Part shown: piece after piece, positions 39,345 through 42,959 of the stretch | Numbering within the stretch: the first letter of the stretch is position 1 | How the letters are laid out: each line of letters begins with the position of its first letter | Origin: Planctomycetota bacterium | Lineage (GTDB): Bacteria; Planctomycetota; UBA1135; UBA2386 | Length of the DNA stretch: 64,000 bases | Assembly (NCBI GenBank): GCA_965223545.1 | Contig: OZ245006.1 | Location: 7,232,001-7,296,000 of the forward strand | Direction of reading: 5' to 3' | Translations under genes and position numbers: made by a program | The notes under the pieces: model-generated | What the model was told of the DNA's origin: nothing | Database searches by the model: none | The model's input: the letters and a program-made list of their open reading frames with translations, nothing else

Positions 39345-39523
39345 GCGTCCGGGGCCGCAAATCTTCGCGCGGCGACAACCTTTCGGAAGGCTCGATGCCG
39401 CTGGCACTTCGACAACGCAGCTCCCGGAGGCTCGAAGACAACACCGGCGTCTGCGCTCAGCGCGGCCGCCCGGGACCGCTGGAATCGCAGGCTCCGCTAC
39501 TCTCGCGGCGCGCTCGGCCTTTG
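39341..39523 (+). repeat. Family B dispersed repeat copy, interrupted by IS110 (continues at 41462-41473)
   Basis: 39341-39379 matches the reverse complement of 50486-50524 at 36/39; 39455-39523 matches the reverse complement of 55337-55405 at 48/69 without gaps. Confidence 0.7.
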
Positions 39524-39586
39524 ATATCTCCTAAGTCATGTCAAGGGGTTTTCGCTGGGGCTCGACATCGCGTGTGCACGGCTTGT

Positions 39587-41089
39587 TCAGGACTCTTCCA
39601 CAAGACCAGGGAAGTGTTCTTGCATGAGATCACCGATCGGGTGAGGTTGACGTGGGGATTCCACGGCCAGGCCTGTGGCGTCCATTGGGCGGCCACTCAA
39701 GTCCCTCGTCGTCGGAGTCCCCACTCGTCCCTGTCGCCGTTGGTCGCGCTCATGCCGCTGTGGCGCGACGATGCTGCGCGTGAACTTGGCTGCGATGAGC
39801 GCGCGCGCGGCAACCTTCGTGAGCTCGTTGCCGTCGGCGTCTCGCAGGACGTAGCGGACTTGCGTCGACGCCGGCTTGTCATCGGCGCGCTGGCTGTCGC
39901 GACGCTTCAGGAGGGCGTAGACGCGGCGCGCCATCTTGCCAGCCAATGCGATGAGGATGAGGTTGTGGTGATCACCTGCGGCGTAGCGGCGAGCGTAGTA
40001 CGCCGCGAAATCCGGATCCCACTGGCGAGCGACGTCAGCTGCTAGGTAGAGGTACTTCTTGAGTACTCGTTGGCCGGTTTTGGTGATTGGCATCGAGGGG
40101 TCGCTCATGCCCGTCTGCTTCCGGCGTGGACACAGTCCGCAGTAGCTCACGAACTTCTTGCCGTTCGAGAACCGCGCGATGTCGCCTACCAAGGCTTCGA
40201 TGGCCGCAGCGATCGTGGGACCGACGCCGCGCAGTTGCTCGAGTGTTCGGTCAGGATCGACGCCCAGGTAGAGCTTCTTGATCTTTGCGTCGAGCTTGCG
40301 AACGTCCGTGTTCTTGCGCTCGATCTCATCCAGCTCGTACACCACATCCTCTTGGATGGCCTCGTAGTCGAACGGCATCTGCCCCGCAGCTCGCAGCTCA
40401 GCGTAGTACTCGGCGGCCTGTCGGCAGGACTCGAGCACGCGGTCGACCAAGCACGGGTCATGCGTTCCCTTGGATCGCTTCGTCAAGAAGCGCTCCAAGC
40501 GACTCTTCCCAAGGCCGACCGCTTTCACCGGATCGACGTAGCGCCGCAGAAACCCCATCTTAGCGGCACTGAACTTCTCTGCCCCCAAGGCCTTCATGAG
40601 GCTGGGATTCGCCAGTACCAGTATCGCGTGCACACGACGCTTGTGGTCGCTGAGCTCGCGCGCCAACCGCTCACGCCGCTTCACGAGTCGACGGATCGTC
40701 GTCTCGTCGGCAGTTGGAACACGCAGCTGGTGGACGCCCTTTGGATCCATCTGCGGCAGACGCGCAGCGGCCTCGGCGTCTACTACGTCGGTTTTGGTGT
40801 GCTTGCTATAGAACTTCCGCAGGTCGCTCAGCTTCTGTGGTTTGCTCACGTAGATCTGGAACCCTGCGGCGTTCACGTGCGCCGCGATGGGCAGCCACGC
40901 CAACCCCGTTGGTTCCATCACGAAGCTCACCGGACCCTCGGCACCTTCCTGTGCACGGCGCAGCAGAAGGTCAATACCCTCACGGCTGTTCTCGACTGAA
41001 AACGGTCTGCCCCGAGACTTCGCACCATCCAGAACGACGGCTCGGTGCTTGCTCCTCAAGCCGAGATCCAATCCAACGAATCGATTCAT
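39587..41089 (-). CDS. IS110-family DEDD recombinase/transposase, 500 aa
   Basis: VGLDLG, MEPTG and KTDVVDA (DEDD); LRGVGP..A, SYCGLCP..KQTG, ITKTG and IALAGKMAR motifs; GGAGG RBS. Confidence 0.95.
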   Translation of the reverse strand: MNRFVGLDLGLRSKHRAVVLDGAKSRGRPFSVENSREGIDLLLRRAQEGAEGPVSFVMEPTGLAWLPIAAHVNAAGFQIYVSKPQKLSDLRKFYSKHTKTDVVDAEAAARLPQMDPKGVHQLRVPTADETTIRRLVKRRERLARELSDHKRRVHAILVLANPSLMKALGAEKFSAAKMGFLRRYVDPVKAVGLGKSRLERFLTKRSKGTHDPCLVDRVLESCRQAAEYYAELRAAGQMPFDYEAIQEDVVYELDEIERKNTDVRKLDAKIKKLYLGVDPDRTLEQLRGVGPTIAAAIEALVGDIARFSNGKKFVSYCGLCPRRKQTGMSDPSMPITKTGQRVLKKYLYLAADVARQWDPDFAAYYARRYAAGDHHNLILIALAGKMARRVYALLKRRDSQRADDKPASTQVRYVLRDADGNELTKVAARALIAAKFTRSIVAPQRHERDQRRQGRVGTPTTRDLSGRPMDATGLAVESPRQPHPIGDLMQEHFPGLVEES

Positions 41090-41164
41090 GTCCCCTCCAT
41101 GTTCAACGAGTGAGTGTCGACGAGAGGACTCTCCCTACCCGCGCAGTCCGCCTGAGGAGGCGAG

Positions 41165-41430
41165 TCGCCAAAACGGTTCGTGTTTCGGGGCCGTGATTTC
41201 TCACGCCGCCAATCTCCTAAATCGGGTCCCCCACGCGGGAGGAGAGTCGCAGAACCAAATGAGGGGCCGCTCGAAGCGCCACCATTGCGGCAGATCGCGA
41301 AACCTCTCCGTCGCACGCCGGGGGACCCTAAGCTCTCTTGCGGCCGATGACCAGACTCCCGACACGACTCCTGCGGCTGCACCATCGCGCGAGTCTTCCA
41401 CACCGCTACGGCGCGACGGGTGTGGAGAAC
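41165..41430 (-). ncRNA. Putative bridge RNA in the IS110 left non-coding end (limits approximate)
   Basis: Nested stems GGGTCCCC/GGGGACCC and GGAGAG/CTCTCC enclose a loop with guides matching the target. A second loop around a CGTGA-GAAA-TCACG hairpin has guides matching the donor ends. Confidence 0.75.
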
Positions 41431-41471
41431 TCTAGCTTCGCAGATCATGGAACCACACATACCGTTGCGGC

Positions 41472-42959
41472 CTACAGGATCGGCAGCAGCACCGGCGCGG
41501 GGCGGATGTCGCCCTCGTCGTCGGCGGTCGCCGGTGAGGCCGCGTAAGTCGGTCGGTTCTGGTCGTCGACGAGGACGCCGCTGGCGTTGCGATAGCCACG
41601 CCAGGCGAGGTAGCGCGTCTTGGTCACGCCGTTGGCCAAGGCACCGCCGGGCAGCACGATGTCGATGCTGTCGTCGAGGATCGTGTTGGTGCCGTCTTGG
41701 TTGGTGCCGGGGCGCGCCATCAGCTGGACGACACCCATGCCGCCGAAGCCGCCGGTGGGGTTCCGGTCCCACATGGACGCGGAACTCGGTGGGGGGTACT
41801 TGCCGTCGATCGCCAGGCCGGAGAACAAACCCTGCGTGCTGATGCCGCCGTCGGCGGACACCGCGAAGCTGTAGTCGGCCAACGCGTAGGTCTCGCCGTG
41901 GGCGTGCAGGACGATTCGACCCAGCGAGTAGAGCACGACCATTCCACCGGCGCCGCCGCCGCCGCCCGCTCCCTGGTTGTTGCTGCCGGCCTGCTCGCCG
42001 CCGCCGCCGTTGCCGCCGTTGGCGGAGATGATCCCCTGTGGCCCGACCTCGATCTTGCCCGCGGCGAGGATCACCAGCGCGCCGCCGCCGCCACCGCCGC
42101 CGCCGCCCTTGTTGTTGCTGATCCAGTTGCCGATCGGCCCGCAGAACGTGCTGCGGTCGCCGCCGCCACCTCCGCCGGCACCGCCGATCGGAGCGGCCAA
42201 CTCGCCGGGAATCACGCGGCCCTGCGCGACGTCGTAGCCCGTGCCGAAGAAGTTGTTGTCCGGATCGCTGTCGGTGAAGCCGACCGGCCCCGCCGCGCCG
42301 CCGGGCAGAAACCGCTGGCTGCTGCCACTGAAGCCCATGCAGCCGTAGCCCCCCTGGCCGAGCACTTGCACGAACGAGGTGCCGTTGGCCTTGACCGGAT
42401 ACCAGGGGTCGCCCTGCGTGGCGAAGGCGCCGCCACCGCCGCCCGAGCCGCGGCCACAGTCGCTCGTGCACGACAGCCAGCCGCCGGCACCACCGAGGTT
42501 GGCGGCGCTGCCGGGCCCGAAGCCGTACTGCCCCCGCAAGCTGGGGCCAGTCACGCTCGGGCTGCCCAGGCCGCCGTTGCCGCCACCGCAGTTGCCGACT
42601 CCGCCGGCGGTGGGAAAGTTGGCCGACTGCAGCGTGTTGACGCGGTCGCCGTCACTGCCGTCGACGCGCAGGGCGCCGTTGACGACGAAGTCACCGGTGA
42701 CGATCCACACCATCGGCCGGCTGCCGGTGCCGCGCACCGTCGTGCCGGCGGGGATGGTGACGTTGCGGAAGATGAACACGCCTCCGCTGACCCCGCGCGG
42801 CGGCTTGCCCACCGGCTGGATCTGGGTGAAGTCCGTGTCGAGGATGACCTCGGCCGCCGTCGGCATGTAGTCGCACTGCGGTTGGGCGGAAACCGCGGTC
42901 GCCAGGCCGGCCGCGCACAGGGGAGCCGCAGCCAGGCCGCGGAGGAGGGTGGTTTGCAT
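41472..42959 (-). CDS. Secreted glycine-rich hypothetical protein
   Basis: Signal peptide ...AVSA-QP; multiple GGGGG tracts; 495 aa. Confidence 0.75.
   Translation of the reverse strand: MQTTLLRGLAAAPLCAAGLATAVSAQPQCDYMPTAAEVILDTDFTQIQPVGKPPRGVSGGVFIFRNVTIPAGTTVRGTGSRPMVWIVTGDFVVNGALRVDGSDGDRVNTLQSANFPTAGGVGNCGGGNGGLGSPSVTGPSLRGQYGFGPGSAANLGGAGGWLSCTSDCGRGSGGGGGAFATQGDPWYPVKANGTSFVQVLGQGGYGCMGFSGSSQRFLPGGAAGPVGFTDSDPDNNFFGTGYDVAQGRVIPGELAAPIGGAGGGGGGDRSTFCGPIGNWISNNKGGGGGGGGGALVILAAGKIEVGPQGIISANGGNGGGGEQAGSNNQGAGGGGGAGGMVVLYSLGRIVLHAHGETYALADYSFAVSADGGISTQGLFSGLAIDGKYPPPSSASMWDRNPTGGFGGMGVVQLMARPGTNQDGTNTILDDSIDIVLPGGALANGVTKTRYLAWRGYRNASGVLVDDQNRPTYAASPATADDEGDIRPAPVLLPIL

Follow-up and report, generated by a model that had tools for sequence, protein, structure and literature searches.

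The stretch of DNA analyzed here (the window) comprises 64,000 nucleotides from a Planctomycetota bacterium (assembly GCA_965223545.1, contig OZ245006.1, positions 7,232,001 to 7,296,000) and carries an insertion sequence on its minus strand at 39524..41463; unless stated otherwise, all features described below lie on that strand. The element consists of a left end of 374 nt, a recombinase gene of 500 aa (39587..41089) and a right end of 63 nt, and this combination of a long left end and a short right end places it in the IS110 group, not in IS1111. Comparison of occupied sites with naive repeat units revealed that the insert, which runs from a left end starting GGTATGTGTGG to a right end closing with TTAGGAGAT and the donor core AT, is exactly 1940 bp long and is accompanied by no target duplication. 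The genome (8.1 Mb, 2 contigs) contains 11 copies, 100% identical across the 1948 nt queried. The element is a well-preserved RNA-guided insertion sequence of the IS110 family, and its own bridge RNA explains its landing site. The copies, the exact insert, the naive sites, the structure of the RNA and the covariation of its guides with flanking DNA are directly supported by the data presented here, and we regard the full account, that of a 1940-bp IS110-group element guided by a bridge RNA to the target GCCGCA-AC-CAAA with its left end starting at 41463 (hereafter the outer register), as very probably correct.

The family assignment in the original prediction, made by a model from the sequence alone, was borne out by the recombinase. 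Its protein matched Pfam PF01548 (DEDD_Tnp_IS110) with 86.7 bits (cut-off 29; 1.9e-24), PF02371 (Transposase_20) with 75.6 bits (cut-off 21.3; 4e-21) and NCBIfam NF033542, ‘IS110 family RNA-guided transposase’, with 208.7 bits against a cut-off of 140. Describing it as a new programmable recombinase ortholog is fair in the sense of a new member, and the NCBI model would already name it an RNA-guided transposase. HMMER matched the sequence to the solved bridge recombinases ISCro4 (9t56, E 9.2e-17) and IS621 (8wt6, E 2.2e-13), and an AlphaFold model with a predicted local distance difference test score of 85.9 returned 9t56 and 8wt9 as the best Foldseek matches (E ~2e-13, template modeling (TM) score 0.72-0.75 over the target), confirming the fold of IS621 and ISCro4; the next fold matches were TIGR-TasR and Nop5 proteins. 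The DEDD residues D8, E59, D101 and D104 correspond to D11, E60, D102 and D105 of IS621, and in 103 relatives the four columns hold D in 94 (9 gaps), E in 90 or D in 7, D in 99 and D in 99, respectively.

The codon aligned with the catalytic serine of IS621 is ACG (40112..40114), encoding Thr326. The HMMER alignment sets PRRKQTGMS of the recombinase against PRRYESGSS of IS621, with QTG against ESG, and the equivalence of Thr326 and S241 assumes 2 extra N-terminal residues in the PDB chain (328 residues, native 326). In IS621, S241 forms a 5'-phosphoserine link, according to the part of Hiraizumi 2024 (PMC11208158) that was available. Among the 103 relatives this column contains S in 58 and T in 45 and no other residue, with repeated switches between the two from relative to relative; S329, the serine that follows, shows no conservation. 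A hydroxyl would be retained at Thr326, and the existence of 11 identical copies speaks for activity of the Thr form. No report of a threonine nucleophile in IS110 or bridge recombinases was found in a literature search conducted largely without subscription journals.

The genome also contains two other groups of IS110-family transposases (C1, e.g. 615167-615385 and 5180809-5181210; loci L023-L041), with Tnp-domain identities of ~34% (4 matches) and ~27% (23 matches), and both carry Ser at the Thr326 column. A plasmid collection contained no relative above 31% identity. Contigs from other samples (runs X5 and X6) contain 70-73% of the words sampled from the element (window 39424-41571), indicating that near-identical elements occur elsewhere; the loose contig ends in both runs all stop at GATC and resemble ligation chimeras.

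Boundaries and target of the element

An exact search of the genome found 95 unoccupied GCCGCAACCAAA sites, in which GCCGCAAC is joined directly to CAAA without GGTAT, and a BLAST search with the repeat unit (80 matches spanning the site) revealed GGCCGCAAC-CAAAC, likewise without GGTAT, as the common form. Occupied sites are colinear with naive units of several subfamilies, with as many as 38/40 identical positions on each side, and exactly GGTAT…GGAGATAT (GGTAT...GATAT) sits between GCCGCAAC and CAAA. The naive sites and the exact 1940-bp insert together show that the left end begins at GGTAT (41463), 5 nt outside the position 41458 at which the original prediction had placed it. The strings quoted for that placement are all present: GCCGCAACGG at 41471-41462 and TAT at 41461-41459 followed by GTGTGG on the left, and TTAGGAGA at 39534-39527 and TAT at 39526-39524 followed by CAAAGG on the right. 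The boundary drawn from them differs from that seen in the free sites, and the circle junction derived from it, TTAGGAGA-TAT-GTGTGG, would lose 5 nt that belong to the element. The proposed empty site GCCGCAACGG-TAT-CAAA does occur twice unoccupied, but its interpretation as the native allele is not supported, as the 95 free sites lack GGTAT. Direct repeats at the ends of an element, here TAT, can mislead on boundaries when free target sites are ignored.

The string GCCGCAACGGTAT occurs 13 times in the genome, 11 times occupied and twice empty, and these 13 GGTAT-bearing sites fall in at least four repeat subfamilies, with right flanks CAAACACGGAGC, CAAACTCGGATGCC, CAAAG[G/A]CCGAGCGC and CAAAGACGGAGTG; the 5 nt therefore arrived with the element and not with the repeat. 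A usable empty allele of the same locus was not found among the 20 nearest genomes, which belong to other genera (~70% identity).

All 11 copies have GCCGCAAC immediately before GGTAT, preceded by G in 10 copies and C in 1 and differing further out, and all 11 right flanks share CAAA and diverge beyond it. The target is thus the 12-bp word GCCGCA-AC-CAAA, located inside a repetitive extragenic palindromic (REP)-like repeat. Around the window copy its left half GCCGCA (41466..41471) equals nt 1-6 of the left target guide described below, the target-derived core AC of the left junction (41464..41465) is the one found in the 95 naive sites and in AC-CAAA, the reverse complement of the right target guide, and the right half CAAA (39520..39523) pairs with UUUG of the latter guide. 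In the 11 copies the flanks are conserved over 8 and 4 nt, just as far as the two target guides extend.

Nine of the 11 copies lie in full REP-like units (…CTCAGCGCGGCCNNG|GCCGCAAC…GGCCGCGCTGAG…). The window copy, which stands directly after the TAG stop of a 495-aa glycine-rich open reading frame (41472-42959, minus strand), has only the right half of a unit, and one further copy (L009) is outside the repeat; these two share only GCCGCAAC and CAAA(CAC) with the others. The REP-like family has terminal inverted repeats CTCAGCGCGGCC / GGCCGCGCTGAG (e.g. in the left flanks of L001-L011) and a small hairpin, GCGGCC-NNN-GGCCGC, whose 3' arm overlaps the left half-site and which accompanies the copies in full units. 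About one tenth of the target sites in the genome are occupied.

Bridge RNA and its guides

Related loci were gathered from a genome-contig search (11) and a metagenome-contig search (80), giving 91 relatives and, with the window, 92 sources, and the upstream regions of the relatives align from GGTAT onward. A covariance model built from an alignment of 13 distinct sequences located an RNA upstream of the transposase gene, on its coding strand, in 82/92 sources, the window included (E ≤ 0.01); the match in the window, the bridge RNA core at 41126..41332, scored 169 bits. Further upstream, a 5' stem-loop (…UCUCCACACC…GGUGUGGAAGA…; 41391..41434) forms a hairpin in the minimum-energy fold, and its arms in relatives read CCACAG…CUGUGG. 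RNAalifold and pair counts revealed compensatory changes in four elements (the two lower target-arm stems, the target hairpin, the donor hairpin and the 3' hairpin). In the 13 sequences 95.6% of cells were paired and 17/37 pairs were changed on both sides, a level reached by 0/500 shuffles; in the 71 distinct matches, whose alignment was fitted to the model and so leans toward it, the values were 92.6% and 35/37. A scan of the region against Rfam 15 with E up to 10 gave two chance matches and no bridge-RNA family, and the fold of the whole 369-nt end alone was uninformative (z = -1.2).

Both loops are built on a common scaffold, GGNGG-stem-loop-stem-G-CCCC, and the compensatory changes that it shows in relatives uphold the shared scaffold described in the original prediction. 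Loop 1 is hypervariable and loop 2 conserved among relatives. Structure and guide data also agree with the earlier view of the long left end as a two-loop RNA whose first loop addresses the target and whose second addresses the element’s own ends. One strand, CCGCGUG (~41238-41232), the 3' strand of the lowest target-arm stem, has alternative partners at ~41316-41310 and ~41146-41140. With the upstream segment, 3/7 pairs were changed on both sides in the 13 sequences and 7/7 in the larger set. With the segment just before the ribosome-binding site, in a helix that encloses the donor arm, the 13 sequences gave 4/7, and in the larger set 77.8% of cells were paired, compared with 63.8% after shuffling, and 74 cells were changed on both sides, compared with 24.9. 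The two helices are mutually exclusive.

The guide strings of the original prediction were likewise found in place, in loop 1 (GCCGCAATGGT at 41291-41281 and TTTGGT at 41259-41254) and in loop 2 (TTAGGAGAT at 41220-41212 and ACACG at 41183-41179). The RNA, its loops and three of the four guide positions had been identified correctly, but with the left boundary set 5 nt too far in, the left target guide and the core were over-read. The left target guide is GCCGCAAU (41284..41291), 8 nt long instead of 11, in the same sense as GCCGCA-AC and, at the second core base, facing the bottom-strand G with a U. The GG that had been counted as part of it pairs with CC of GCCCC: for the second G of ‘TGGT’ the pair is G-C in 40, A-U in 26 and G-U in 2 of 68 distinct relatives, and this switching identifies the GG after the guide as stem, not guide. 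The right target guide, UUUGGU (41254..41259), stands as originally read, but it is a perfect complement of AC-CAAA and need not be paired with ATCAAA through a wobble.

Comparison of guides with flanks revealed covariation in the target loop beyond chance level, as would be expected of a bridge RNA. The 7 variable nt of the left target guide were found exactly in the upstream flank of the same locus in 20/52 loci (each counted once, from 57 RNAs whose upstream sequence was long enough), compared with 36/2448 (1.5%) for foreign guides, and with at most one mismatch in 40/52, compared with 501/2448 (20%). The right end could be located in 37/63 distinct loci (at most two mismatches to left donor guide plus AT), and the right target guide paired 4/4 with its own right flank in 30/37 and at least 3 in 35/37, whereas foreign guides did so in 1.5% and 8.9% of 1260 comparisons; in a second pass, the four right-flank bases were the complement of the guide in 36/48 right junctions. 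Because the target-loop guides covary with the flanks of each relative, the bridge-RNA reading holds, with covariation on both sides of the target. A small group of relatives (L056-L059, L078, L085 and L086) targets the same GCCGCAAC word with the guide ACCGCAAC-U, whose place in the scaffold is displaced by one base, so that pairing requires a 1-nt offset or a bulge; the right junction of L057 is one T shorter.

The donor can be written as TTAGGAGAT-AT-GGTATGTGT. Its left half, the right-end terminus TTAGGAGAT (39526..39534), is conserved in relatives and identical in 9/9 positions to the left donor guide UUAGGAGAU (41212..41220), as had been noted before, and is followed by the donor-derived core AT of the right junction (39524..39525), which in relatives comes after the conserved terminus TTAGG(A/C)GAT. 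Its right half, GGTATGTGT at the start of the left end (41455..41463), pairs together with the core AT with the right donor guide ACACGAACCGU (41173..41183) through 8 Watson-Crick pairs, 2 G-T pairs and 1 A-A mismatch. The ACACG of the original prediction is the distal part of this guide (41183-41179); its pairing with TGTGT exists but shows no covariation in that register (own 2.03/4, foreign 1.83/4 over 33 loci, with 5/33 at 4/4). In relatives, GGT or TGT comes next in the complement of the right donor guide, as it does in the left end, and the first 3 left-end bases are matched in 12/16 of the junctions at the exact offset, which are described next.

Instead of the trinucleotide TAT proposed before, the core comprises two nucleotides, which are AC in the target and AT in the donor. 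Right target guide and right donor guide agree on the core dinucleotide in 58/61 distinct RNAs (2000 shuffles: mean 17, max 28); the dinucleotides are AT in 22, AC in 21, AG in 9, CT in 6, GT in 2 and CC in 1. The core read by the guides tracks junction cores AC, AT, AG, GT, CT and CC and equals the right-junction core exactly in 27/48 and, with G-T pairs allowed, in 40/48. On the left side, (G/T)GTAT follows directly after six flank bases and the core in 16/46 left junctions of relatives, and in 14 of these 16 exact-offset relatives the right target guide reads the very core found on the left. A single register, with left half-site, core and then a left end starting (G/T)GTAT, fits all these guide-flank data.

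Several observations weigh against this reading of the element. (G/T)GTAT was off the exact expected offset in 30/46 left junctions (±1 shifts or miscalled junctions), the subgroup L056-L059 needs the 1-nt offset in the left target guide, and counts over relatives are not independent events, given their shared ancestry. On the donor side, the left donor guide stops short of the core, with UG opposite AT; the distal right donor guide (ACAC:GTGT) is specific to the window element, L082 having the same guide and a different left end; and an unbiased scan of RNA columns against left-end positions, in which some junctions were miscalled, gave no clear diagonal. The position of the nucleophile holds Thr, compared with the Ser known from IS621. 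Finally, the data, assembled contigs and a polyA RNA run with 0 reads (which is no test), hold neither expression evidence nor a circle-junction read, and no end-to-end joint was seen in the assembled contigs examined (X1, X5 and X6).

Putative junction promoter, core asymmetry and probable GGTAT scars

Production of the RNA, formation of a circle and the chemistry are the parts of the account that we infer. The 374-nt left end encodes a structured RNA with two internal loops. Loop 1 would read the target, its left guide GCCGCAAU by pairing with the bottom strand (a single U-G pair falling on the second core base) and its right guide UUUGGU through perfect pairing with top-strand AC-CAAA. Loop 2 would read the joined ends TTAGGAGAT-AT-GGTATGTGT, with UUAGGAGAU matching the right end and ACACGAACCGU, irregular in its middle, pairing with the core and the 9 nt that open the left end. 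The junction of the joined ends would, in the outer register, be ...GGAGATAT|GGTATGTG..., and end joining would set a -35-like TTGACA in the right end (39539..39544) 17 nt from a -10-like TATGTG at left-end positions 3-8 (41456..41461), creating a putative promoter for RNA and recombinase. This junction promoter is predicted by consensus match only; a promoter scan of the integrated copy found 0 sites. Relatives have TATAAT (L052), TATATT or TATACT in place of TATGTG, and TTG…TAT… with a spacing of 16, 17 or 18 nt occurred in 27 of the 34 related loci that had calls for both junctions (4, 12 and 11, respectively), including TTGACA-17-TATAAT in L052; the remaining 7 of the 34 had no usable left-junction call. 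IS621 rebuilds a promoter across its joined ends likewise, as reported in the available portion of Hiraizumi 2024 (PMC11208158).

All 11 copies have the target core AC at the left junction (41465-41464) and AT at the right junction (39525-39524), and the reciprocal form, AT left and AC right, was not seen. Of the relatives whose guides read AC, 12 have AT and 4 have AC at the right junction (row count). A two-strand exchange across a 2-nt stagger should also yield the reciprocal form, and its absence fits transfer of the top strand only, with the cut 3' of the core. The core asymmetry would then mean that the top strand alone is transferred; repair bias or selection could also produce it. Preprints (Xie 2026, Sun 2025), to the extent that their text was accessible, describe, for IS110 elements, circles of single-stranded DNA and an insertion that chiefly involves the top strand, and a 2026 Nature paper, accessible in part, treats IS621 excision.

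The string GCCGCAACGGTATCAAA, with GGTAT between GCCGCAAC and CAAA, occurs twice without the element, at C1:611325-611341 (plus strand) and C1:537448-537464 (minus strand). Each of the two is a naive site extended by the element's 5 opening nt, ending at the TAT common to GGTAT and GATAT, and as they belong to different repeat subfamilies they point to two separate events. They are best read as scars, which may have arisen by recombination at the inner AT/TAT, where all four guides match, or by bypass of an inserted single strand through a template switch at the TAT microhomology.

The two GGTAT sites are also what gives the originally predicted register its force. That register bounds the element by GTGTGG (41458) and GGAGA (39527) and gives it a TAT core, an 11-nt left guide and the target GCCGCAACGG-TAT-CAAA, the GGTAT sites being native empty alleles. 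All four guide matches are present there, GCCGCAACGGTAT is found both occupied and empty, and the GGU after the guide agrees with the GGT of the junction. The same 5 nt would, though, require repeated independent origin, given their spread over at least four subfamilies and the 95 other members without GGTAT; relatives keep (G/T)GTAT behind each of their variable guide matches, the conservation expected of an element terminus; the GG of UGGU belongs to a stem with compensatory changes (G-C 40, A-U 26); the right target guide would require a G-T pair where its match to AC-CAAA is perfect; and the -35 and -10 would be 12 nt apart, the 17-nt spacing being obtained only in the outer register. We consider this register improbable. 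Still less credible, to the point of being very hard to sustain, is recognition of the REP-like repeat by the protein alone, with the left end serving as promoter, leader and terminal binding site and the guide matches as by-products. The presence of 9/11 copies in full units with the GCGGCC-NNN-GGCCGC hairpin beside the target would suit such recognition, and a preprint, as far as its accessible text goes, reports a target stem-loop as an extra determinant for ISPpu10. Relatives with unrelated flanks nevertheless have matching guides at the same RNA positions, the two copies outside full units share only GCCGCAAC and CAAA(CAC), and the conserved flank lengths of 8 and 4 are the guide lengths.

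A different question is whether the recombinase made the scars at all. With insertion in the outer register, a replication or repair template switch between the TATs of GGTAT and GATAT would leave failed insertions rather than excisions, and we give this origin a substantial chance, somewhat short of even. It accounts for scars that consist of the naive site and 5 nt up to the common TAT, and it accords with the single-strand circles and mainly top-strand insertion of the preprints and with the top-strand outcome in 11/11 copies (AC left, AT right). Three bases of homology are few, however, and the inner site is matched by all four guides, which makes an RNA-guided event equally possible. Returning to the outer-register account as a whole, we tentatively propose, without giving it the better part of the odds, that this clade of large bridge recombinases uses Thr as readily as Ser for the covalent DNA link, that the core label reflects top-strand-only transfer and that the GGTAT scars are in-genome evidence for a copy-out/top-strand pathway. 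If true, this would lend support from within a genome to a pathway argued until now from reconstituted IS621 and CazIS110-1.

Relation to known IS110 systems

The element is a further member of a well-described family, and the understanding of IS110 elements is unchanged by it. Bridge recombinases are under development as programmable DNA-rearrangement tools, and a distant ortholog for which a single genome reveals target, donor and guides is a ready candidate for testing (11 copies, 95 free sites and ~60 distinct related RNAs). It also offers clues to mechanism: Thr at the nucleophile position (45/103), unequal cores that record which strand set each junction, and a middle strand that closes either the target or the donor arm.

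Among other systems, ISPpu9 and ISPpu10 of Pseudomonas putida, set beside the window by description only and from partially available sources, resemble the element in having many copies in identical repeat units and a GC-rich hairpin 5' of the target. The hairpin of the window genome, GCGGCC-NNN-GGCCGC, overlaps the left half-site and is missing from 2/11 copies. IS1111/seekRNA elements share the protein family and an RNA guide with two specificities, but have their RNA in a long right end and carry long subterminal inverted repeats, according to the available part of Durrant 2024 (PMC11208160). The best match by both sequence (E 9.2e-17) and fold (TM 0.74 over the target) is ISCro4 (PDB 9t56), known here from its PDB title and the listing of a related preprint; the element differs from it in the same ways as from IS621.

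The likeness to IS621 of E. coli, as far as the accessible text of Durrant 2024 (PMC11208160) and Hiraizumi 2024 (PMC11208158) describes it, extends over most of the system. Both have DEDD RuvC-like and Tnp domains; a long left end that houses the RNA, itself made up of 5' stem-loop, target loop and donor loop; guides whose 3' side is complementary to the core and right half-site; a dinucleotide core, no duplication and REP-type repeats as targets; a -35 in the right end and a -10 in the left end that are united in the circle; and an irregular right donor guide, with a conserved donor loop and a variable target loop. The differences lie in the protein, which has ~20% identity over the fold, 500 aa compared with ~326, ~100 extra helical residues between the domains (~164-261) and a ~100-aa tail (397-500), with Thr instead of Ser at the aligned nucleophile position, and in the RNA and its targets. 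The cores of the element, AC and AT, are unlike each other, whereas that of IS621 is reported as CT; the left donor guide ends before the core, the right donor guide spanning 9 + 2 nt; at ~320 nt, the RNA leader exceeds the reported 177 nt; and the middle strand of the RNA has two possible pairing partners.

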